A stretch of 64,000 nt of DNA. Origin: a virus. Positions 586-52,700 of this stretch are shown here, one piece after another. The position numbers and the translations under genes were made by a program. The stretch is from the UHGV virus genome UHGV-0038496. One strand, 5' to 3'. The notes beneath the pieces are model-generated. The model searched no databases. It had not been told where the DNA came from and saw only the letters and a program-made list of their open reading frames with translations. Position 1 is the first letter of the stretch, and every line of letters begins with the position of its first letter.

Positions 586-1593
586 TTATTCACCTGCAAG
601 AGTGACTTTAACAACCAGTTCAGGACGGGTGTTAACAGCCAACATAGAGGTTTCAGACTCAACTTTTTCTTCACGCAGATAAGCGGAGTGTTTGTACCAC
701 ATGTACAATTCTTGTGCCGGAGCATTTGCTTCTTGCAGGTCATCTGCCGGAGCAAAGTGCAGCTGGAACATAGAATCGACACCCATCGGTACTAAACGTG
801 CTTCTTTTGCCGGGATGTTGCCGGAGATATCTTCGATGAAGGTCATACCTTTGTGTTCAAATACACGGTAGACTGAGTTTTCACCGCCAGCACCCAGACG
901 GCGACGCAGAGGTTCCTGTTGAGAGCCGTAGTAGGTGTAAGCCAGTTCTACCAGCGGATGATGAACCAGTGCACTGAAGAATTCAGGAGAGCACAGGCAG
1001 ATAATGCGGTATGCACCAGCATTGTCACCAGCTTGCAGAGCAATGTGCAGACGGCCTTCTTCGATGACTTCCATCGGGTCCTGAGCAGCATCAGCCGGAT
1101 CGATTTCGATAGCTTTCTGTTCTACGCCCCACAAGGTGTAGTAGTTGTACTGGCAGGTTGCATCGCCAGGAGCATAGGATTGACCCATGATAGCAGCAAA
1201 CAGTGCTTTTTCACGCAGTGCTTCATGAGAAATACGAATGCGACGAACTACACGGGTTACAACGTCTTCTACAGTTTTCGGAGCATCCGGGCTGAAATAA
1301 CGACGGAAGTTCTGAACGTCAGCAGCAGTGATACCTTTGTCGAGAGGGAAAAAAGGTATGTTCAAATTTTTAATCTGTGCACGTTCACTTCCGACGTAGT
1401 TTCTTTCGCCACCACGACGACGAGCAGGAATATCTGCTACAACTTCGTCAACGCGTTCGATTTGTGCGATGGTAGAAGTACCCAGGTGGGTTTCAAAAAG
1501 GTTCATGCCAGTGATCAGACGGAATTGGCGTGGAACCAGTTCAAGAGTTGCACCCAGGTCAACAATACCAAAATCATCTTTACGAGTGATCAT
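586..1593 (-). CDS. major capsid protein
   Basis: 335 aa ORF at end of portal-protease-scaffold-capsid order; size and position like lambda E-type capsid proteins; followed by strong terminator. Confidence 0.55.
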   Translation of the reverse strand: MITRKDDFGIVDLGATLELVPRQFRLITGMNLFETHLGTSTIAQIERVDEVVADIPARRRGGERNYVGSERAQIKNLNIPFFPLDKGITAADVQNFRRYFSPDAPKTVEDVVTRVVRRIRISHEALREKALFAAIMGQSYAPGDATCQYNYYTLWGVEQKAIEIDPADAAQDPMEVIEEGRLHIALQAGDNAGAYRIICLCSPEFFSALVHHPLVELAYTYYGSQQEPLRRRLGAGGENSVYRVFEHKGMTFIEDISGNIPAKEARLVPMGVDSMFQLHFAPADDLQEANAPAQELYMWYKHSAYLREEKVESETSMLAVNTRPELVVKVTLAGE

Positions 1594-1616
1594 TATTTTC
1601 TCCAGTATCAGTAAAA

Positions 1617-1994
1617 TTATTCTTGAACTTTGTTACCACGAGCTTCAAGAGCTTCTAAAACAGCTTTAGGAGCTTGTACACCGCCAGCGATAACCAGATG
1701 TTCTTTTGCAAAGGTAACGCCGCGAACAGCAACAACTAGTTTATATTTTTGACCAACAGTCAGCGGTTCAGCGAGGTTTACACGACCGCAGTCATCAGGC
1801 AGTAAAGCACGGTCTACCAGAACACCGAATGCATCAGAGCCATTTGCGTTAGCCAGAGCACCAGTAGCGGTAACTACAGCACCTGCTACATGGTCAGCAG
1901 TCAGTTGGATTTCGATTTCTTTAAAGTTGAAGCCAGCATCGCTTGCATCTACTTTGCCGAGCACGATATCAGAATATTGAGTGGTGATCATCAT
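1617..1994 (-). CDS. hypothetical head protein (possible decoration/auxiliary capsid protein)
   Basis: 125 aa Ala/Gly/Val-rich ORF between scaffold and capsid genes; assignment by position only. Confidence 0.3.
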   Translation of the reverse strand: MMITTQYSDIVLGKVDASDAGFNFKEIEIQLTADHVAGAVVTATGALANANGSDAFGVLVDRALLPDDCGRVNLAEPLTVGQKYKLVVAVRGVTFAKEHLVIAGGVQAPKAVLEALEARGNKVQE

Positions 1995-2006
1995 TTTCCC
2001 CTTGAA

Positions 2007-3062
2007 TTATTTGTTAGCTTTTGCAGCGAGAGCTTTCGCTACGTTTTCTGCAAGGATTTCTTCTGCGGATTTTTGAACATCATCCACAGTAGGTTCGCCG
2101 TCTTTACCGTGTTCGGCGGTTGCGAATTCTTCTTTGGTTTTTTCGACTTCGGTTTCAAGTTCAGCAATACGTGCCTGAGCTTTTTCAAGAAGTGCGACAA
2201 CTGCTTCATTAGCTTTTTCTAACATGAAGTCAACCAGCATTTCGTGATCTTCTTCAGTTACAAAGCTAAAAGATTTAGCTTTTTCAAGCATTTCTGCTTT
2301 TTTGAGTTCAACCTGAGCTTTGATGATTGCATCGGCTTCTGCTTGTTTAGCCTGCAATTCTTCAAATTGTTTCAACAGGTCAATGTACTCTTGAGATTTA
2401 GTTACATCTTCCACCGTATTCCCCTCGATATTTGCGGGTTCATTGTTATCAGTATTATCTGGGGTGTTTTCTGGAACTTCTTCCACAGAGTCAACTGGAA
2501 CTACTTCTTCAGGTACAGGTTCCGGTTTCGGCTCTGGTTGAGGTTCAGGTTCCACCACAGGTTCTACTGGGTCTTCGACCGCTTTAATAAGGTTCCCTTC
2601 TGCATCGAAGAGATCAGCGGTTACTTCCTCGAACTTCTGCTGTGCTTTCAGAAGCTCATATTGTTCGACTAAAGTAAGGTCTTTACCTTCCTGAGCAGCT
2701 TTGTGGAGCGTGACAGTGGAGTTTTCTTCTTCCAGCCATTCACGAACCATTTCAGCGTCGGCTTGCGCCCAATCATTGTCTGGGTGTTCTCTAGCGAAGG
2801 CTTCCTCTTCGATTTCAAACCCCAGTAGTGCAGCTAATTTTTTAGCATCATAGGACCACAAACCGAAGAATCTCATGAGGTATTCTTCAAAACTAAGATC
2901 CACCGTGACTTGACGCAGAGCTTTGACGATATCATCCGTCAGTTGTTCTGGTTCAAGATCACTTTTCATCAGCAAAGAGATTGGGCGTTTATTAGCACTG
3001 AAGCCTTGTGCTTCATGGCACAGTGCAATGCCTTTCTCTTGAATTTTGATGGTGTCTGCCAT
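2007..3062 (-). CDS. putative scaffolding protein
   Basis: 351 aa, very acidic, coiled-coil-like, PEPEPQPEPKPEP low-complexity tract; located between protease-like and capsid genes. Confidence 0.45.
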   Translation of the reverse strand: MADTIKIQEKGIALCHEAQGFSANKRPISLLMKSDLEPEQLTDDIVKALRQVTVDLSFEEYLMRFFGLWSYDAKKLAALLGFEIEEEAFAREHPDNDWAQADAEMVREWLEEENSTVTLHKAAQEGKDLTLVEQYELLKAQQKFEEVTADLFDAEGNLIKAVEDPVEPVVEPEPQPEPKPEPVPEEVVPVDSVEEVPENTPDNTDNNEPANIEGNTVEDVTKSQEYIDLLKQFEELQAKQAEADAIIKAQVELKKAEMLEKAKSFSFVTEEDHEMLVDFMLEKANEAVVALLEKAQARIAELETEVEKTKEEFATAEHGKDGEPTVDDVQKSAEEILAENVAKALAAKANK

Positions 3063-3490
3063 TATTCATCGCCCTCTTCATTTTCCACGATTGTGGCCCC
3101 GAAATTGATATCTGTAATCTCACCTGTCTCTTCGTCAACATGACCTGTGCACTGGATGCTTAAGCCACCGACAATGCCAGCTTTCTTAGCTTCCCACAAG
3201 GCTTCGTTGTTGTATTTGACTTTGGCGACCCATGAGCCAGCCTTGATAGGCTGTCCCGTTTCTGCAACAATCACATCGAATTCTTCCTGAATCCAGGTTT
3301 TTTCGATAGTGAATGCGTTGGTGGAGGTGAGATGGAAAAGGTTTTCTCTGGCGATGCCAGCGGCGTATGCCATATCCCAGCTCTCTTTCGCTTTGCGAAG
3401 AGTTTCTTCGGTCATCCATTCGCCGTGAGCATCTTTGGTGTTTGGTTCGTAGATGATCTCGTACGAAATCATCTCTTCAGTTGTAGACAT
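3062..3490 (-). CDS. hypothetical protein (candidate head maturation protease)
   Basis: 142 aa ORF immediately downstream of portal; position typical of prohead protease; no catalytic motif confidently recognised. Confidence 0.3.
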   Translation of the reverse strand: MSTTEEMISYEIIYEPNTKDAHGEWMTEETLRKAKESWDMAYAAGIARENLFHLTSTNAFTIEKTWIQEEFDVIVAETGQPIKAGSWVAKVKYNNEALWEAKKAGIVGGLSIQCTGHVDEETGEITDINFGATIVENEEGDE

Positions 3491-5216: not shown

Positions 5217-6021
5217 TTAAATCATCCTCTTATACATAGAGGGTGAAACAATCTTCGGAATAACACATGGCATCGCAACTTCCTCTTTTTCAAGGTAGTT
5301 GATTGCAGAAGCAATGGAGTCGGCCCAGTCATCTTTACGGCTAAAGGTTGACCGTTCGCCGTTGAATTTCTCCAGCTCTGTCAAAAATGCTTCCAGTGTA
5401 TCAGGGTCGAAACTTGACCTGACAAGCCGAACCATACCCTGTTGGGCAAGGTTGGCAAACGGTGAGAAACGGGTGAGTTTTGATTTGTTAGACGGCATTG
5501 GGTCTTCTTCCACCCTGAAACCTCCAGCAAGGAGTTTGCGGGATGAAGTAAGAAACTCACTCTTACCTGCCTGACCGGGGTCCACAGAGAAGACAATCAC
5601 ACAATCTTCACCATCAAACTCTGCCTGTTTCCTGATAATAACATCGCGTTCACCAGCTTTCTTGCAGAACTTACCGCTCAAGCCTGTGGAATACCTGCCA
5701 TCATCTACGTTTTCAGGACAATAGTCACCAGAGATGTAGTAGTAACCATCGCTATCCTTGCTGACTTTGATACTGGCTGTATAGTCGGGGAATTTGTTGC
5801 CAGAGGTACGTTCTGTACCAGCTTTATCCCACGCTCTTACAGAAACTGCTCCTAGGGGGACATGATCCGCATCTTTCAAGAATGTGCGACTGAAATAGTT
5901 TGCGCCTTCCGGTTTAGCGAACCAGTTACCATAGAGAAGTTGTGCTTTTTCCAGTTCTGGCAGACCTTCTAGGAATGCAAGATATTCTGGGTTATCACGC
6001 AAGCAGATAGGGTTATCGTGT
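5217..6021 (-). CDS. terL: terminase large subunit, exon 3 (C-terminal nuclease domain)
   Basis: Frame contains LLYGNWF-type terminase C-terminal motif; upstream boundary set where conserved intron 3' core ends (approximate). Confidence 0.55.
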
Positions 6022-7009
6022 CCTGGTGTTCAGGGCCGGACGCAACTCCGACCCCCGTTGGTTCCATCCACCGCATCCATGCTCGGCTGCATGTTACCAT
6101 GCAGAGCAGACTATATCACGATCCTGTTTCTCACAGGACCCTTCGCTTTTCGAGCACCATCAGCTTGTGCCCTACTCCCTTTCGGGATAGTCGTTGAACT
6201 ACAATTACCAATCATAATTGTTTGAAATGTAAGTATAAGTTTTCCTTTCCTTGATACTTTTCACTGTACGGTGAGAAACCCCCCACAATCTTGCCACCGC
6301 ACCAACGGATAAGCCTTTTTGTAAATCTTCGCAGATACCAATCACCTTGTGCTCACTTATTCTGTTAGCTGAAGGTATTTCCCTAAAGTGAAACTCCGCA
6401 GAGATATCTGGGTATACTGATCCATTCTTTATACCACTTACAAGGGTTTGATTGACACCGAACATCTGACAGATATCTTTTACCCTTGCACCTTGCTCTA
6501 ATAGCCTGCATATTTCAAGGGCAGTGGCATCATCCAAATACCTGTATTTATTTACATAATCTTTTTTAAGTCCAGTTTCATGGGCGTGGTGTGTGTTTTC
6601 CTCTGGGGTTGTCCACTCAAGGTTCCATGCGGCGTTATTCAACTTATTACCGTCCAAGTGATTTACTTGGGTTTTCACGCTAGGATTATCATTATCAACA
6701 AAAACCTCAGCAACAACTCTGTGAACAAGCACTTGGAACTTTTTGCCGTCCTCACACAGGGAAACCACAGCATAGCCTGTCTTTTTATGCGTAACAGGTT
6801 GAAGGAATTTATTAGAATACAAACTATAAATTCTGCCATCATATGTCACGCAATAGTGTGGGTAACCTAAAAATCCTAAATTCTTCATTTCAAACACTCC
6901 CTACTACAGTTTCGGAAGAATAATTATAGCTGCTGATTATCTGAAAGTCAATCAGATTTTCCAGCAATTAACGAAGTTATTCGACGTGCATTACTGCACG
7001 AAGCCACTA
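6022..7009 (-). mobile_element. group I intron A in terL (contains HNH homing endonuclease gene)
   Basis: Separates two in-frame terL fragments; RNA sense has AACGACUAUCCC and GAUAUAGUCUG (S-element-like) plus CUGCAUGG..ACAUGCAG hairpin; core near-identical to nrdD introns; 5' end approximate. Confidence 0.55.
6205..6897 (-). CDS. HNH homing endonuclease (intron-encoded)
   Basis: 230 aa; HRVVAEVFV...NHLDGNKLNN...NLEW HNH motif; lies inside terL intron A. Confidence 0.7.
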   Translation of the reverse strand: MFEMKNLGFLGYPHYCVTYDGRIYSLYSNKFLQPVTHKKTGYAVVSLCEDGKKFQVLVHRVVAEVFVDNDNPSVKTQVNHLDGNKLNNAAWNLEWTTPEENTHHAHETGLKKDYVNKYRYLDDATALEICRLLEQGARVKDICQMFGVNQTLVSGIKNGSVYPDISAEFHFREIPSANRISEHKVIGICEDLQKGLSVGAVARLWGVSHRTVKSIKERKTYTYISNNYDW

Positions 7010-7333
7010 CAGATTAATGGTTGCACCAATAAAGGCGATAGAGAGGGGTTTTGGAACTATCTCAACACCTTTACCGTTAACATACGTGTACTTCTCGATC
7101 AACTCTTCTGGCGTATCGCCGAAGATAAATTCCCCATCCCTACGGATGAAATAACGCTTAACGCCACACTTACTTTCATCGGGGTAGCCTTCGTCATCAA
7201 GCCACCAACGAACAAGTTTGGCTAAATAATGTTCAGAATCGGGGTTACAGCTGATCACCATTCGCGAAGAGTATTTTGATTTCGACCTCATACGGGAAAT
7301 CAGGTAGTCGATTTGCTCCCATTCGAACTGAGT
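7010..7333 (-). CDS. terL: terminase large subunit, exon 2 (boundaries approximate)
   Basis: Frame encodes ...MVISCNPDSEHY... terminase-like segment flanked by intron-like sequence on both sides; true splice donor probably within 7010-7080. Confidence 0.45.
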
Positions 7334-7966
7334 CGTTTGTGTTCAGGCAAGGTCGCTAATCTTGCCCCGCCACCATGTGGCAGCTGCATGTCTCCATGCA
7401 GACCAGACTATATCTTATAAGCGGTAACAACCGCCTATCCTCCCGTTTCGGCAGTCTTAAAAGACTGTGGGTTTCCCCAGCCGCTTGGCCCTAACGCCCG
7501 TAAGCGATAGTCGTTGAGCACACATCCTATCAGGATGCTTCGCTGCGGATTATCTAAATCAACACACTATTACCATACCTTCGGTCTTTCTCCAAAGCCA
7601 ATATTATGTTACCATAATAGATTGGTGGTGTCAATAGTAAAGATTTCCCCGCAATTAGGGAGGTTTTACGAGAGCTACCAACTAACCCTCGTCAAAGCAT
7701 ATTAAAGTATATTCCACTTTTGTCCCGCCGGATCGCTACTCCGACGCGGTGTGCTAAGACACCCGCCACATATTACCATGTGGAACAGACTATCTCTTCC
7801 ATCCTTGGCGTGCCGTTTGGATCACCAATCGCTTGTGATTCTACTCCCCTACACTCATCGGGGATAGTCGTTACACTCGGTTTCAATTAATCCTTTAACC
7901 GTAGCTCGGTATTGTCCTTTTGTCAAGGAGTTTCACCGAATTAGGCACGAAGGGCAGGTTTGTTTA
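7334..7966 (-). mobile_element. group I intron B in terL (ORF-less, duplicated core; possibly two tandem introns)
   Basis: Two copies of the AACGACUAUC(C/G)C ... (A/G)AUAUAGUCUG ... hairpin ... CCUGAACAC core in RNA sense; no credible ORF; boundaries by analogy with nrdD intron 2. Confidence 0.45.
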
Positions 7967-9079
7967 CCCTTGATGATTCAGCTTATCTTGGACGTATTCC
8001 ATGTGGCAGTACTTGATTACCGCACCATCCCTTTTCTTATTCCACTTACCTGTCTTTGCATCGTAATATGGAAAAGTAAACTTATGATCTTTCTCCCTAA
8101 ATTTTGGCCTCATATATTCAGGAAGATCCAGATACACACTTAGTGCTTTAGGCCACAGACCGCCTTCACCTTCCAGTTGTGGGGTTGTCCTACGGAACAT
8201 CACCACAGAGGTGTTTGGGTCATCTATCATCTTTAGTGGGAGAAGCTGCAAAAGAAAGGATTTACCACTGTTGCCTGTCACTGCAATGCAGTTTTCCAGT
8301 CTGGTGATAAAATAGCCTGTTGTGGTAGCAAAACAATATTTGTAACCATCTTCCGGCTCAAACTCTTCGAACGTTGCATCGTTATTAAGAGCAATCGTAC
8401 CTGCACGTTCGTTGGAGAACACAACTTTGTAACCCTTTTCGAAGAAGATCTGTGCATTGAATCCCAGAGATGATCCGAGGTATTGCAAGAAATCAGCCTG
8501 TTCTTTCGTTGGAACAACGTAGACATGCGAGTCATTACCGTTCAGGTAAATCTCATACCAGATCTGCAACAACTGGCGACGATCACAGTTATACCATTCA
8601 TCTGTGAATTTGTAATATCTTGCCTTTTCTTTCAGCTCTTCGTCAGAAATATCAAGGCCAGTACCACCCATGTTCACAAACGTGGTTTGCATACGCATTG
8701 CCAACTCATCGTTAGCATGTTGTTCGGCCACTTCACTGAAACAAAGTGTACCGTAATCTGTTCCGTCTTCTGGTACATACAGGACTGTGTGCTCGTCAGA
8801 CAATTCCTGACAAATACCATCCTGCACAACCCTGGTCAATTTATCGCATTCCAGCTTAACAAACTCTTCAGGCTGGATAAACATAGCCTTACCAGTTTCT
8901 TTATCAAACTGGAGGATATCTTGACCATCCCAGTCTGAGATTCTGATCCAACCGTTAGGTGTCATCACCTCATGTCGCATTGACAAACAACCCGCTGCCC
9001 CACCAATGATCAGGAAGTCGGCATCATTTTCCAGAATCATTTGTTGTTTACGGGAGCATGGGCCATACATTTTAGCCAT
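7967..9079 (-). CDS. terL: terminase large subunit, exon 1 (ATPase N-terminus, contains intein)
   Basis: N-terminus ...FLIIGGAAG then, after 240 aa insert, SGKSFLLQ: restored Walker A GGAAGSGKS; ATG at 9079 overlaps o-spanin stop. Confidence 0.6.
8270..8989 (-). mobile_element. intein inserted in terL Walker A (P-loop)
   Basis: 240 aa in-frame insert starting with Cys (CLSMRHEVMTPNGWIRISD, intein block-A-like) and ending ...IAVTGN before Ser+1; removal restores Walker A. Confidence 0.6.
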
Positions 9080-10206: not shown

Positions 10207-10282
10207 TGGCACCCCGTACAGGACTCGAACCTGTAACCTATGGCTTAGAAGGCCACTGTTCTTCCATTTGAACTAACGGGGC
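10207..10282 (-). tRNA. tRNA-Arg (anticodon TCT)
   Basis: 76 nt cloverleaf on minus strand: acceptor GCCCCGT/ACGGGGT (G1-U72), D stem GTTC/GAAC, anticodon stem GTGGC/GCCAT with loop CTTCTAA, T arm ACAGG-TTCGAGT-CCTGT, encoded CCA. Confidence 0.8.
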
Positions 10283-10351: not shown

Positions 10352-10699
10352 TTACTGATCGTTGATCGGGATAATCTCTGTAGTAAACGGAGAGAACGGT
10401 GTTGGGGTCGCATCTACAACCGTAGATTCTTCTTCCTCTTCCCCGAACATTTCATCGTACTCTTCCTGCATGGAAGCAGCTTTCTCCAGAACGTATGTTG
10501 CGATGCCCTGACGAATGTTTTCTTTCGTTTTCGGGTTATTCATCATATCGCGGAGAACTTTGTGTGCTTCTGGAATCATTGCAATGAACGCTTCTTTCAT
10601 CTCAATAAGATTTTTATCAAGTTGGATAGCGTTTGATTCCTCTTTCAGAGGTCTGCCCCTGCGACGACGTTTTTTCGCTTTCTCTTTTTTGTCCACCAT
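10352..10699 (-). CDS. hypothetical protein (basic N-terminus, acidic C-terminus; small terminase candidate)
   Basis: 115 aa; KKRRRRGRP basic tract; GGAGG RBS; own promoter; function guessed only. Confidence 0.45.
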   Translation of the reverse strand: MVDKKEKAKKRRRRGRPLKEESNAIQLDKNLIEMKEAFIAMIPEAHKVLRDMMNNPKTKENIRQGIATYVLEKAASMQEEYDEMFGEEEEESTVVDATPTPFSPFTTEIIPINDQ

Positions 10700-12384: not shown

Positions 12385-13062
12385 ATGGCAGAACAAGAGA
12401 TCAAAGCAAGTGTACTGGAGAACTGGTTCAACAAAAACATCTGCTTTGGCAATGATGATTGCTACCGGAAGGTTGACAACCTGTTTGCTGTGTGGGTGAA
12501 AAATCCTGATGCTGTGACCAACAGGAAAGATTTCGATAAGCGAAGAATCCCTGAGGCGGGTAGTGTGTGGGCAGAAAAAAGCTGCCTGTTTCTGACCAAC
12601 ATTGATAAGGCAGTACTGAGTCATCTTGCTGACCAGAACAGAATCCAGTTCAAGTGCTACCAGATTCGTAAGCAGACAAGCTACGAAGATATGCACAGGA
12701 ACAACTGGTGCGGTGATTCCACACATGTGATCGCCATGGAAGCAGGGTTGCCGTACGACAAGAACCACAACAGGAACCGGAAGGTGGCAGAGAGTATCAA
12801 ATTCCTAGAGTCAATCGGCCTTGTGATTAGCAAACCACATGCACGGAGATTAGCGACTATTGATGAAATATCCACACACGAAGACGTGGAATATTTTCTT
12901 CTGCACCCTTCTAAAGACAGAACTTTAAGATCTGTTTTCAGCAGCAGAGCAGGTTTCCTGAAATGGGTAGAAGAAAACAGAGGTTGTGGATACAGCCAGT
13001 TACCTTACCAAGAGCATCATATTGACACGGATGTTCTCTTGTGGTATCCTTGTTACGATTAA
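12385..13062 (+). CDS. hypothetical protein
   Basis: 225 aa ORF after strong promoter. Confidence 0.5.
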   Translation: MAEQEIKASVLENWFNKNICFGNDDCYRKVDNLFAVWVKNPDAVTNRKDFDKRRIPEAGSVWAEKSCLFLTNIDKAVLSHLADQNRIQFKCYQIRKQTSYEDMHRNNWCGDSTHVIAMEAGLPYDKNHNRNRKVAESIKFLESIGLVISKPHARRLATIDEISTHEDVEYFLLHPSKDRTLRSVFSSRAGFLKWVEENRGCGYSQLPYQEHHIDTDVLLWYPCYD

Positions 13063-13079: not shown

Positions 13080-13478
13080 ATGACAAATTTAGGGCAGTAC
13101 CACAAAATCTACTGGGAGATGACAGAGATAAAATACATCAGAAACAAGAAAGATGGTGGAGTAATCAGAGTAAAATCTGCACACATTTTAATCTACTCAT
13201 ACCTCCGTAGCTGTTTTGAAAAATATCTCAAAGCTATCAAGTTACGCAAAAACCAAGGTATGAAGGTTGTTCGGGCAGAGTTATGTGAGAAAGCAATGGT
13301 TGACAAATCTGTAGTCTGCAAAACTCTTAACGACCTTTCAGATGCTGGGTTGATATCTTTAATGAGTAACTCTGGTAAAAGGGGGTACGTATTCAATTTT
13401 GTAGCGGATGTTGAGTCTTTCTACAAAGCAGCAGTTGATGAGGATGGAGAGTCTATCTATGCAGTGGATACAGAGTGA
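13080..13478 (+). CDS. hypothetical protein (possible winged-helix DNA-binding protein)
   Basis: Start at ATG after ACAGGAG; immediately upstream of iteron array; DNA-binding call is tentative. Confidence 0.4.
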   Translation: MTNLGQYHKIYWEMTEIKYIRNKKDGGVIRVKSAHILIYSYLRSCFEKYLKAIKLRKNQGMKVVRAELCEKAMVDKSVVCKTLNDLSDAGLISLMSNSGKRGYVFNFVADVESFYKAAVDEDGESIYAVDTE

Positions 13479-13514
13479 TTATGACTGGTGCATTTTTGGC
13501 GGTTATAACCTCTC

Positions 13515-13640
13515 ATCAGTATGGAAACCATACCGTTTATCGGTATGGAAACCATTCATTATCGGTATGGAAACCGAAGAAAAAAGTGCGGTTTTATTTT
13601 TAAGAATATACCGATAAGAGGCGGTTTTCATACCAATAAG
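13515..13640. repeat. iteron array (3 direct 23-bp-period repeats ATC(A/G)GTATGGAAACC plus inverted partial copies)
   Basis: Direct repeats at 13515, 13538, 13561; inverted GGTTTTCATACC and repeated ATAAGAGG nearby. Confidence 0.6.
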
Positions 13641-13702
13641 AGGTGGAAATCGCCTAAAAACTCCAGAATTATCTTTATAAATCCTAGGGTTAAGTGCTGA
13701 CA

Positions 13703-13716
13703 GATCAGATCAGATC
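13703..13716. promoter_or_regulatory. cluster of three GATC sites
   Basis: CAGATCAGATCAGATCAG; three GATC within 14 bp next to iterons and AT-rich tract. Confidence 0.4.
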
Positions 13717-14391
13717 AGGGATAGTAACTTCGTTAGCATTCCCTCTAACTCGTTACTATGTAGTACTAAGCTCGTACTCTCGCTTACTACCGTAAGCTCG
13801 GTACTCACTAAGTACTACCATAAGCAATGTCTTGCTTAATTAATTTATCAATTAATTTTATCAGTACAAAATCAATCAATAAATTAATTAATCAATCCAT
13901 TGATACCACTAAGTTCGTTCCTCACTAAGTGGTATACATGCTGATAGCATTCCCTCTATCAGATGATACTAAGTTCACACTTCGTATCCACTCGTGTTCA
14001 CTAAGTATCATTGATCCATTATTGCTCAAATTTATTTTTTCTTTTCCCACAAATATGGCGCTCCTTTTACCGCTCGCTCGCGCTCGGCGGGTCGCGCCTG
14101 ATCATCGTCTGCTATCAACAAGTGGGCCTGTGGCAACAGAGCTGCCTGAGTTGTGTGGGAAGATCACCGACCGTAAGGGAGGTGCTAATGTGGGGATGAC
14201 GGTGAAAAGCGAAGCTGCCGAGAGGAACCGTCGAATTGTCTGCGCCGCCGCTTCAACCATACCCAGATACCAGAAATCAGTTTTGAGGCCTCTGGTAGCT
14301 TCTGTGGTTAGCTAATAGTGCCTGATGGCTACAGTTGCATTACTAAACTATCAACATCGTTACAGAGCGTTTGAGAGCGTTTAAATTAGTA

Positions 14392-14420
14392 TTGACAGCA
14401 GATGAAAATTATGTTATTGT
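14392..14420 (+). promoter_or_regulatory. sigma70-like promoter
   Basis: TTGACA-17-TATTGT upstream of 14462 gene. Confidence 0.45.
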
Positions 14421-14461
14421 TCGCCTACTGGTAAAAGTATGCATGAGAAGAGAGGTGCTAC

Positions 14462-14935
14462 ATGCAAGACGGTCGTAAAATGCGTGAAGAGAAAATGCTG
14501 ATCGTTCAGCTTATCCCTAAACCGTTGTGGGGAGTAGCAGGACGTGAAGCTATTGGTCGTAGCTTGTGGGATAAAGCTCGTAAACGCTGCTATAAAGAAG
14601 CAGAGTACAGATGCGAAGTCTGCGGTGGTAAAGGGCCTAAACACCCTGTGGAAGCCCATGAGTTGTATCTGTTTGAAGATCACAAGATCACCTGTGTGGG
14701 GCTGATCGCATTATGCCCAGACTGCCATATGAGCGTGCATCCTGGACGCTGCAACTGCCTCGGCAGAGATGTTTACCTCAAGGCAAGAAAGCATTTTGCT
14801 GACGTAAACTGGTTGACAGAACAGCAGGCACAGGAGTATTATGAAGAGTGTTTCGAAGAGTGGAGAGAACTAAGCAAGATCAAGATCTGGGAAACTGATT
14901 TTTCATGGTTGGAGAATTACGCAAAAGGTAACTAA
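14462..14935 (+). CDS. zinc-finger protein (CxxC...CxxC-H)
   Basis: 157 aa; CEVCGG and CPDCH pairs; AGAGAGG RBS. Confidence 0.45.
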   Translation: MQDGRKMREEKMLIVQLIPKPLWGVAGREAIGRSLWDKARKRCYKEAEYRCEVCGGKGPKHPVEAHELYLFEDHKITCVGLIALCPDCHMSVHPGRCNCLGRDVYLKARKHFADVNWLTEQQAQEYYEECFEEWRELSKIKIWETDFSWLENYAKGN

Positions 14936-50199: not shown

Positions 50200-50525
50200 C
50201 AAATGGCCTGAAGAGTCAAATCATTTCCCCTCTTTAAGCCTCTTTGATCCGATTAACATGCTAATTATTCACAGAAAATACCCACACATAGCCTAAGCAC
50301 TTGATTTCATTGTGAAATATGGCCTGAAGAGCACCACATATTTTAACATACCTTTAACATAATACTTCCCCCGTATATACCTCCCCGCCCTGTCCAGGAG
50401 TCCCGTAAATACTGGCTTCCCCACAAATATCAGCACCACAAATATCACAGGCCTGAAGAGGGCCTCATTTTTTTTTATTCGCACCTCCCCCTCCCCCGTA
50501 GGGCGGTACATAGCCTGAAGAGGCA
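50200..50525. repeat. four dispersed copies of (G)GCCTGAAGAG
   Basis: Copies near 50208, 50322, 50449, 50512 in ORF-free DNA. Confidence 0.45.
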
Positions 50526-50921
50526 TTCATACAATCAGGGGCAAATATCCCAGACTTACATTTGAGGTATTAGGCAGGCGAAACGCGACTCCTTCTCATA
50601 ATGCGAATGATTCTCAAATATCACGGCTGCTTTCGTTATTGATAGCCTGGGCCTTGCAGCTATTGGCCTGGTTATTGCACGGTAGTTACTCACAGCGATT
50701 AATAGTTACACACAGAGATTATAGGGTTGACTGTTCACGCCCTCATTGTGTGGGGTTGAATAATAACATGCGTTACAGTTTTCCACAGGAGCATTTAAGT
50801 TGATGATAAGCCTTCTCATTTGGGAATAATTATTACTTCGTATTGTTCATCATACGTAACACCAGTTATACGCACTTATGATCATCTGTACAGTAGTTCC
50901 ACACAAAGGTAGGACACTGGG

Positions 50922-50961
50922 TTATCCACAGGTGGCAGGGTTATCCACAGACTTATCCACA
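50922..50961 (+). promoter_or_regulatory. three tandem DnaA boxes (TTATCCACA)
   Basis: Exact consensus 9-mers at 50922-50930, 50941-50949, 50953-50961, same orientation. Confidence 0.6.
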
Positions 50962-51299
50962 GCTCACGTATGACGCTACGCGGAATAATCACAGGTCAAA
51001 CGACAGGAAACGAAAGGAAACGAAAACAATCGAAAGAAGATTAATTGCGGTTTATTACAGCACGAAAAGATTAATCATTGCAATAGTTAGCCTGCTATTA
51101 ATTATATTTACAGGGGTGACAGTTACGTCATGTTACAGATGACTGGGCATCATATTGCACTGGCACACTACCATACCAGCTATATAACATGCCCCACAGA
51201 TGCATCTTATAACTGGTCTGACCACTTACGCATAAAAAATCGTTGACAAAAAGAGCGAAATTTGTTAGGCATACTTTCCCCATACTTCGGTCATACTCC

Positions 51300-51480
51300 C
51301 CCCACAGTTTACAGTTTGAAAAGCCCATAATCACACCTCAGGCCTCTGGCCTTCGAGGTAACGCAGTTACGAGACACGCATTGAAATCATAACATCCCAT
51401 GACTGTTTACACAGCGTAGCACTGAGGCCCCGCCGATTTTACACATCTGACAGTTTACACGCATGACAGTTTACGCCTTG
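51300..51480. repeat. ACAGTTTAC(A/G)C repeat family
   Basis: At least five copies (about 51308, 51315, 51402, 51449, 51465). Confidence 0.45.
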
Positions 51481-51596
51481 ATTTACAAGGAAATAGTTGC
51501 GACATGTAACTACCGCAAGACGGTATAGTTGCGCCGTGTTATCGTTGCATGTGTAACTTTACCGTGAAGCCATAGGCTGAATGTGTAACATTACTT

Positions 51597-51928
51597 CAGC
51601 GTTATTGTCACAGATCTGATAGTTTGCACTCTACTCTTAACCAGTGTTATAGTAACACCTGTTACTACTACTTTTGACATAATAACGCTGGGAAAACGTA
51701 ACCGTTTTTGATTATTAACATGTAATAACCCAGCGTTACCATAACAATTTTTATTGTTATTGGAGGACATAATAACGCTGAGGATTATTACATGATAATT
51801 TATGATATAATTTCGCTGGCTATGCCAGGTGGACTACGTCCACCCCGTAGGGCGTTATCATAAATTAGCGAGATAATAATGCTGGATAATAACACGGGGG
51901 TGTTATTGTCACTCAGCGTTATTATGTC
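51597..51928. repeat. iteron family GACATAATAACGCTG (direct and inverted copies)
   Basis: Direct copies at 51677, 51767, variant 51872; inverted CAGCGTTATT at about 51597, 51732, 51914. Confidence 0.5.
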
Positions 51929-52651
51929 GCTCCCTCCGGTCGCGCCATGTTATCGTTGCATAATGTGATTATTGCATTCGCAAATTATTATTTATCTTAT
52001 TTTACTTTATGCAATTTATATATTTTCATTGATTGTAATTTTATTTATTTTATATTTTATTGTATCTCATAATCTAATTATATTACTAATATTATACTAT
52101 ATAGATTATTGAGATACAGAATAATCACCGCCTGAAAGTATATTAATCCCACAGCAGAATAGTCACTGCATGAAATAATGTGGGGTGGGATAGTCACACC
52201 TCGGCATGACTGCCTTGCGGAATAATCACCATATTTACCACACCTGCCAGGTTGTTGAGAATATTTCTCATATGTTAGCTATGCACTAATATTGCATAAT
52301 TAAAACATACCTATCAGATGCATCTTATCGTGACGCTACGTGAAAAATAGAATTTTGCGCCTATAGTTATACCCGATTTTTCAAAAAATGGACTTTATAA
52401 CTCACTGTTTTATAAAGATTTATAGTTGTTGACACAGCCATATAAAATGTGCATCAGCCGAAAAGTGTGAGATACTTCACAAAATGCCCTACATTTGACA
52501 GCCGAAAACTGAAAAAACTTAAAAACTATGTATGCAAATACAGCTATTTTACTGTGTGGTTAATTTTTAGGCATTTTATTTTATGCATTGTTTGAATACC
52601 GGATTCACAGCTTGCCCATGAAGCTACGCTGAATAAATCACTATATTACAG

Positions 52652-52683
52652 ACAACAAAAAGGCCGCTTATTTGCGGCCCCTT
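52652..52683 (-). terminator. rho-independent terminator
   Basis: AAGGGGCCGCAAATAAGCGGCCTTTTTG on minus strand after gene ending at 52701. Confidence 0.6.
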
Positions 52684-52700
52684 ATTATTTCGTTGATAAA

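Follow-up and report, generated by a model that had tools for sequence, protein, structure and literature searches.

The 64,000-nt stretch of the viral genome UHGV-0038496 analysed here (the window; positions count from its first letter) comes from a 140.7-kb metagenomic contig (ENA ERZ27287477) and belongs to an uncultured myovirus distantly related to rV5 (Vequintavirus). A non-coding gap of 983 bp lies between an open reading frame (ORF) at 13080-13478, which encodes a winged-helix protein of 132 residues, and an HNH-type gene at 14462-14935. We read this region as a candidate for the cis-acting part of the replication-origin module of an rV5-like myovirus; it is the best reading that we have, and we give it an even chance of being right. 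It is proposed because the protein resembles an initiator, the repeats behind its gene are phased and semi-palindromic, gene and repeats are replaced together, a palindrome in the gap is easily melted, and the module stands at the head of a gene cluster. A further and more tentative proposal, which we think less likely than not, concerns the block at 13721-14011. This may be a new strand-specific structured element, either a phage non-coding RNA of about 300 nt or a single-stranded-DNA loading or priming signal, coupled to the initiator-like protein with its iteron cassette and to a G+C-rich element.

The winged-helix protein and its repeats

The structure model of the 132-residue protein has one winged helix with short N- and C-terminal extensions (pLDDT 79). 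By four methods, profile, sequence and fold comparison among them, its nearest known protein is PDB 4RO3, the N-terminal DNA-binding domain of RepA from PLE, a phage satellite of Vibrio cholerae (described in the passages searched of Barth et al. 2020, PMC7145576). The profile search of PDB found 4RO3 with an E-value of 1.3e-3, and Foldseek, with the model as query, ranked it first, followed by the staphylococcal RepA initiators 4pql, 5kbj and 4pt7. Identity to PLE RepA is 17-22%. These comparisons establish, at the level of sequence and predicted fold, a resemblance to the RepA_N-type DNA-binding domain of PLE RepA. On this point they bear out an earlier sequence-only reading of the window, which had called the gene initiator-like; that reading also proposed an origin of iterons and an A+T-rich unwinding element beside it.

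Close metagenomic relatives of the protein are 81-97% identical to it and form about a dozen clusters at 90% identity; we refer to the phages that carry them, together with that of the window, as the clade. A HMMER scan of 1.8 billion representatives added one distant homologue, P0013, which is 33% identical and whose contig (L019) is a true rV5-type genome. Profile comparison by hhalign with rV5 gp075 / FV3_00072 (92.6%, E 4.5e-7) indicates that the 132-residue protein is a remote homologue of these proteins as well. All homologues found, in three lineages, are 88-156 residues long, and none fused to helicase, primase or other domains was found when such fusions were sought. The rV5 protein gp075 was first labelled a putative transcriptional regulator and is now a replication initiation protein (RefSeq, PHROG 12838). 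The rV5/FV3 homologue matches the N-terminal parts of larger PHROG families of the latter name. The present label is by similarity, and no study of the locus was found in the searchable literature.

Directly 3' of the gene, three direct repeats of the form ATC(A/G)GTATGGAAACC occupy 13515-13529, 13539-13553 and 13561-13575. Their spacing of 24 and 22 bp amounts to about two helical turns. The array (period 22, 2.6 copies) has a Tandem Repeats Finder score of 87, the highest in the window, and its consensus ATCGGTATGGAAACCATACCGATT is a palindrome around AAA (ATCGGTATGG-AAA-CCATACCGAT). Inverted copies follow, ATACCGATAA at 13608-13617 and GGTATGAAAACC, on the minus strand, at 13623-13634. The three direct repeats and the inverted partial copies on which the sequence-only reading had built are real. 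Allowing up to two mismatches, GGTATGGAAACC has 8 matches in the window, 4 of them inside 120 bp, against a chance expectation of 4.6 (128 kb, both strands). The core GTAYGGAAACC is present in all members of the clade. Its Y is T in every copy in some phages and C in every copy in others; in L003, L017 and L018 all direct copies and the inverted copy alike have gone from T to C. In being phased and semi-palindromic and in changing jointly, the repeats behave like binding sites that belong to a single factor. Iteron 3 is overlapped by a hairpin (AAACCG/CGGTTT) that resembles a weak terminator of the winged-helix gene. Because its loop is 12 nt long, this hairpin escaped the terminator scan.

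The gap recurs, with a length of 980-1290 bp and followed by the same HNH-type gene, in every relative that has the complete gap on its contig; the gene that precedes the winged-helix gene varies between these phages. At about 62% pairwise identity, the iteron part is more variable than any other stretch of the locus. In L019 the homologous gene is followed directly by phased semi-palindromes GGCCACT-N-AGTGGTC, and in rV5/FV3 by four copies of TGTCCGT-NAT-ACGGACA and then at once by an A-rich tract. Despite the same layout, the iteron sequences are unrelated between the clade, L019 and rV5/FV3. L019 and FV3 are collinear (87% and 83% identity) except for a wholly replaced block, L019 4633-5957, which contains a small ORF, the winged-helix gene, the iterons and the hairpin/A+T part; similarity returns precisely at the G+C-rich element. 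That a DNA-binding protein and the repeats beside it are replaced jointly argues strongly that the two work together. It is also the behaviour of replication-specificity modules.

Between the iterons and the conserved block stands the microsatellite (GATCA)3, whose three GATC had been taken for Dam sites. The repeat is real (13703-13718). In alignment A1, however, it is replaced by (ACAATA)n or (ATAGA)3 in half of the relatives (L003, L006, L012 and L017), and the L003 gap has just two scattered GATC and no cluster. A short tandem repeat is always present at this edge, and its identity changes between relatives. A Dam-regulated origin or packaging (pac) site built on a GATC cluster is not supported, as the cluster is not conserved.

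Conserved hairpins and the G+C-rich element

Block 13721-14011 folds as six consecutive hairpins, U1, U2, an A+T palindrome, U3, U4 and U5 (Table 1); the folding z-score is -10.5 for the plus strand and -11.2 for the minus. Four of the six have GGA-containing loops (AGGGAAUG twice, GAGGAACGA and GUGGAUACG). ACTAAGT, with 5 of its 14 copies in the window inside 13807-14006, and TAGCATTCCCTCTA, with exactly two occurrences (13734 and 13945), had been listed as repeated motifs in the sequence-only reading. The motifs are present, and the phased repeats, the meltable tract and the block exchange agree with the iteron and unwinding layout proposed there. ACTAAGT and CATTCCCT, however, are parts of six near-invariant hairpins rather than loose motifs, which that model did not predict. 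The loop CATTCCCT is carried by three different stems, TTAG/CTAA, CTGATAG/CTATCAG and, in L019, TGGGAAG/CTTCCCA; therefore the hairpin itself is conserved, beyond the sequence alone.

Pairwise identity in 13721-14011 is 91-99%, save for one interval of 86% inside the A+T tract, and the flanking genes average about 85-88%. Among 13 distinct sequences the right-hand hairpins (109 nt) have about six variable columns. The A+T centre is more variable in sequence, yet it is A+T-rich and palindromic throughout. The tract itself was real as described before, but it lies at 13835-13904 and not at 13850-13920. Its G+C content is 14-16% (43% overall), and among the 70-mers of the window it ranks second in ease of melting. 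Gene conversion by the HNH gene was rejected as the cause of the high identity of the block, because the intervening 14100-14370 is just 60-81% identical. A 25-mer of hairpin U3 had no match when searched against one genome per bacterial species.

Compensatory changes are seen in the A+T palindrome (13846/13881, T:A to G:C) and in U5 (13966/14008, A:T to T:A). The pairing is also unequal between the strands. Folding of the alignment gave -106 kcal/mol for the minus strand and -69 for the plus strand. In a set of pairs that favours neither strand, G.U on the minus strand (C.A on the plus) is found at 14 variable pairs and the reverse at 3 (binomial p 0.013), these being counts of columns in related sequences and not of independent events. 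Two further variable pairs go from Watson-Crick to Watson-Crick. On the minus strand 99.9% of 1339 cells are paired, and none of 500 shuffles reached the covariation score. The palindromes of the rV5-type phages lean to the minus strand by 4 to 1. We take the bias as suggestive, not as proof. The likeliest working form of the hairpins is a single strand of minus sense, which could be an RNA antisense to the flanking genes or single-stranded DNA exposed as the region opens. A scan and a reading of the sequence gave no convincing sigma-70 promoter or intrinsic terminator that would delimit a minus-strand RNA. Rfam 15, run on the window at gathering and at permissive thresholds, gave no real match for the locus and nothing below E 5 in 13400-14500.

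The G+C-rich element that follows is about 340 nt long, and the same element is found at 695-1030 in rV5 (L029) and at 5958-6300 in L019. Its stability is no higher than that of shuffled sequence, and several of its hairpins show compensatory changes. Relatives contain a variable number of extra hairpin modules, each with TGTGTGGG at its end; TGTG(T/G)GG motifs number two in the window and four in the close relative L006. Pairwise identity is about 95% at 14040-14100 and 60-81%, with large insertions, in the remaining part. A motif common to the clade, L019 and the rV5-type phages consists of CYAWTGTGG, 2-3 nt, one side of a 6-bp stem, a loop starting GWAAGC and the second side of the stem. 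Five different versions of the stem are known, each of them complementary. In a nucleotide search of L019 against Vequintavirus the element was the only detectable part of the gap (81-83% identity). A sequence-only nhmmer profile of the rV5-type element gave no significant match in the window (E 2.6). The proposed homology of the window's element to the rV5 type rests on the shared motif, with its five covarying stems, and on position.

Strand counts for the element in the rV5-type phages lean weakly to the plus strand (9 to 4), and an Rfam scan of the rV5 gap found nothing real, the best score, for rli43, being 24 bits where the threshold is 100. The G+C-rich part was rejected as protein-coding, since large insertions, and indels of lengths not divisible by three, separate the relatives. 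In rV5-type phages the element is unannotated or lies under a spurious ORF such as rv5_gp074. This frame was likewise rejected as coding: it is Arg-rich, and 1-nt indels between lineages break it.

Table 1. Features of the locus and their positions in the window
Feature	Position	Strand	Remarks
Sigma-70-like promoter TTGACA-17-TATCCT (with TG)	13022..13050	+	5' of the winged-helix gene; consensus scan 10/12, consensus match only
Winged-helix protein, 132 residues, resembling RepA_N / DUF6945 N-terminal domain, without C-terminal domain	13080..13478	+	candidate iteron binder
Three direct iterons, core GGTATGGAAACC	13515..13575	+	consensus unit palindromic around AAA; T/C changes joint in all copies of a lineage
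Hairpin AAACCG/CGGTTT, then T-run	13571..13601	+	overlaps iteron 3; read from the sequence; columns invariant in clade alignment A1
Inverted iteron copies TTATCGGTAT and GGTATGAAAACC, with related semi-palindrome GGTGGAAATCGCC	13608..13657	-	
(GATCA)3 microsatellite, GATCAGATCAGATCAG	13703..13718	.	left edge of the conserved block
Hairpin U1	13721..13759	-	apical loop CATTCCCT (plus) / AGGGAAUG (minus)
Hairpin U2	13760..13818	-	outer stem GTAGTACTAAG/CTAAGTACTAC, inner hairpin within
A+T-rich imperfect palindrome, 78 nt, candidate unwinding element	13825..13902	-	minus strand: continuous helix of about 26 bp with G.U pairs
Hairpin U3 (ATACCACTAAG/CTAAGTGGTAT)	13903..13935	-	minus-strand loop GAGGAACGA
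Hairpin U4 (CTGATAG-CATTCCCT-CTATCAG)	13941..13962	-	identical loop on another stem in the distant relative L019
Hairpin U5 (ATGATACTAAGT...ACTAAGTATCAT)	13963..14011	-	
G+C-rich structured element	14053..14390	+ (uncertain, leaning plus)	core motif common to rV5-type phages; no Rfam family
Sigma-70-like promoter TTGACA-17-TATTGT	14392..14420	+	for the HNH-type gene (14462-14935); right boundary of the non-coding region

Weighing the replication-origin reading

We infer that the protein binds the iterons, that the A+T tract unwinds and that replication starts at this locus. The winged-helix protein would bind, probably as a dimer, the three phased iterons and the inverted copies 3' of its own gene, and this binding would mark and distort the DNA. 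Opening of the 78-bp A+T-rich palindrome, which is about 260 bp distant, would follow. On the minus strand exposed in this way, or else in a transcript of that sense, the flanking near-invariant hairpins would fold, and they may serve the conserved phage primase-helicase and polymerase as a loading or priming signal.

Several observations weigh against an origin. The Pfam scan gave DUF6945 with E 2.3e-4, which is under the curated cut-off, and PF06970, the RepA_N family proper, gave no hit at E up to 0.1. The C-terminal domain of full RepA_N initiators is absent from the 132-residue protein in the model; the protein would thus be an initiator DNA-binding domain only, which is the main weakness of the initiator label. 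In the clade about 260 bp separate the A+T tract from the iterons, whereas the two adjoin in rV5/FV3. DnaA boxes, which are found in many, not all, iteron-type origins, are missing from 13480-14460 (TTWTNCACA). Origin DNA is usually no more conserved than genes; the 91-99% identity of the block and its minus-strand wobble pattern fit a structured RNA at least as well, and the origin idea by itself gives no reason for hairpins that are conserved above the genes and pair on one strand. The rV5 genome paper tried to define an origin of replication and could not.

The window also contains another candidate. An ORF-free region of about 2.2 kb at 50265-52700 includes three perfect DnaA boxes (TTATCCACA) within 40 bp (50922, 50941 and 50953), 6 of the window's 13 TTWTNCACA sites (in 50265-51445) and its most A+T-rich and most meltable stretch (52039-52108, 10% G+C), all of which count against the 13.5-kb locus. 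Dispersed and tandem repeats are many there, for example GACATAATAACGCTG four times plus inverted copies. The region is partly similar to Vequintavirus DNA near 103-105 kb, close to one skew change noted in the rV5 paper. By its sequence it is a candidate for a rival origin or for a second one. Some phages do have two origins (ICP1, in the passages searched of PMC7145576), so the 13.5-kb and 50.3-52.7-kb regions need not exclude each other.

A rival reading is a regulatory protein beside a structured-RNA locus, with no origin at all; we regard it as possible, if on the unlikely side. The winged-helix protein would then be a transcription factor or roadblock, and the repeats would be operators that govern read-through out of the protein's own gene or the synthesis of one non-coding RNA or several, namely a minus-strand RNA of about 300 nt made up of the six hairpins and the G+C-rich element on the plus strand. 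The strand evidence is in its favour: the wobble count of 14 against 3 (p 0.013) with the two Watson-Crick to Watson-Crick changes, the nearly complete pairing, the covariation score that no shuffle reached and the deeper fold of the minus strand, and the minus lean of the rV5-type palindromes. G.T wobbles are tolerated in single-stranded DNA hairpins too, and hence the strand bias does not prove RNA; moreover, the minus-strand RNA would be without a convincing promoter or terminator and has no Rfam match. The loop CATTCCCT/AGGGAAUG is kept on three stems, even in a relative whose protein is 33% identical, and a terminator-like hairpin overlaps iteron 3. The gene that follows in rV5 lacks its own promoter, which makes transcription of the region probable, and the original rV5 annotation of the protein was that of a transcriptional regulator. 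Against this stand the closest relative of the protein, which is an initiator domain and not a repressor, and the placing of 3-4 phased semi-palindromes after the gene and not at a promoter, which is unusual for an operator.

A packaging (pac) or partition-type site, at which a small DNA-binding subunit would recognise the repeats and hairpins, seems improbable to us. Winged-helix proteins that bind repeat arrays include TubR, which Foldseek placed at rank 41, and terminase small subunits also bind repeats. The terminase genes are about 4 kb from the locus but are not adjacent to it, and what from its sequence seems a better small-terminase candidate, with a basic N-terminus (KKRRRRGRP), lies beside them at 10352-10699. 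No TubZ- or ParA-type gene is nearby, and a lytic phage has no need of a partition system. A genome end or packaging start within the block, suggested by two IMG/VR loci that seemed to end there, was rejected because the contigs continue. That the repeats are functionless slippage products in a gene-poor spacer is close to refuted. Their part of the locus is indeed the most variable, but the core is kept in all members of the clade with its copies changing jointly, the same layout with other sequences is present in two further lineages, and the adjacent block is more conserved than the genes.

Genomic setting and known systems

The ATP-dependent DNA ligase encoded in the window is about 70% identical, as protein, to the rV5/FV3 ligases. 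In a nucleotide search of GenBank phages with the locus, the HNH gene was the only match, so the clade is known from metagenomes only; tblastn with the 132-residue protein gave no matches. Left of about 12.1 kb the minus strand encodes terminase and portal genes, a group I intron and one tRNA. The plus-strand genes from 12385 on, a cluster at whose head the module stands, are of DNA metabolism (ligase, exonuclease, resolvase, polymerase subunit and NrdD). The slot 5' of the winged-helix gene (12385-13062 in the window; the same slot in L003-L014) varies between phages: its product has 225 residues in the window and 236, 160, 103 or 90 in relatives, or is missing. KilA-N, AntA, pRha or Bro-N genes lie across the divergent junction from this slot. 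In L012 an IS200/IS605-type pair (Y1 transposase and OrfB/TnpB; 1483-3066) is inserted about 1 kb 5' of the module. Among the terminase-region ORFs on the minus strand (5217-9079) are a group I intron at 7384-7720 (Rfam, 80 bits) and an HNH-type ORF at 6205-6897; given these, the large terminase gene seems to be interrupted. The lone tRNA is a tRNA-Arg with anticodon TCT (10207-10282, minus). Across the locus, about 18 GenBank records (MG0656xx) that bear the name 'Campylobacter phage' hardly differ from E. coli Vequintavirus genomes; they look mislabelled or contaminated.

Origins made of iterons and an initiator are of a known kind. Coliphages of the rV5-like (Vequintavirinae-type) group are common and are used in typing and therapy collections, and to our knowledge their replication origin has never been defined. 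The literature searched contained no description of the locus as an origin, of an initiator-domain-only protein with an exchangeable iteron cassette, of the strand-biased, near-invariant hairpin array or of the conserved G+C-rich element; nor did it describe such an origin architecture or an origin-linked RNA for any phage. The locus offers a concrete origin candidate for the rV5-like phages, made up of a small RepA_N-like DNA-binding protein, the iterons that go with it and a palindrome that melts easily. Three lineages conserve this arrangement, and between two of them gene, repeats and hairpin/A+T part are replaced jointly. The analysis also brings out two conserved non-coding elements that are blank or under spurious ORFs (rv5_gp074) in annotations. 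If the hairpin array is an RNA or single-stranded-DNA signal, a large lytic phage would start or control its replication by way of an initiator that is a DNA-binding domain only.

The closest experimental parallel is PLE. In the passages searched of the PLE paper (PMC7145576), RepA is an initiator of the RepA_N family shown by experiment to bind semi-palindromic iterons at the PLE origin, and RepA_N iterons typically have inverted sub-repeats converging on an A-tract. The three-copy consensus of the window, ATCGGTATGG-AAA-CCATACCGAT, has exactly that form. PLE RepA differs from the 132-residue protein in having a C-terminal domain. PLE itself, a satellite, depends on a helper phage, whereas the locus of the window is part of a large lytic phage that has replication genes of its own. 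The same passages (PMC7145576) contain no counterpart of the hairpin array or the G+C-rich element.

The staphylococcal RepA_N initiators of pSK41 and pTZ2162 (4pql, 4pt7, 4pta and 5kbj) differ from the protein of the window, which has no PF06970 hit. In these plasmids the origin lies inside repA and an antisense RNA controls repA; in the window the repeats come after the gene. The lambda O protein has a winged-helix N-terminus and a C-terminal domain that recruits P-DnaB. Ori-lambda, inside the O gene, has four phased iterons, each an inverted repeat, and an adjoining A+T-rich stretch, and initiator and iterons are exchanged together among related phages. The winged-helix protein, the phased inverted-repeat iterons and their joint exchange are shared with the window; the position of the origin inside the gene and the C-terminal domain are not, and no search gave sequence or profile similarity to lambda O. 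ColE1 RNA I / RNA II and the single-strand initiation signals of plasmids and phage G4 are strand-specific hairpins that control or start priming in single-stranded RNA or DNA. The chain of strand-specific hairpins at or beside the candidate origin resembles them in form only, with no sequence or Rfam match.

A further likeness is to rV5 gp075 with the 640-660-bp gap behind it in Vequintavirus. That locus differs in having unrelated iterons, no CATTCCCT hairpins and another arrangement of flanking genes. Like the window, it has the gene followed by semi-palindromic iterons, four in number, an A+T tract with ACTAAG-type palindromes and a G+C-rich element, and the two share in this last the core motif CTAATGTGG, the 6-bp stem and GWAAGC.

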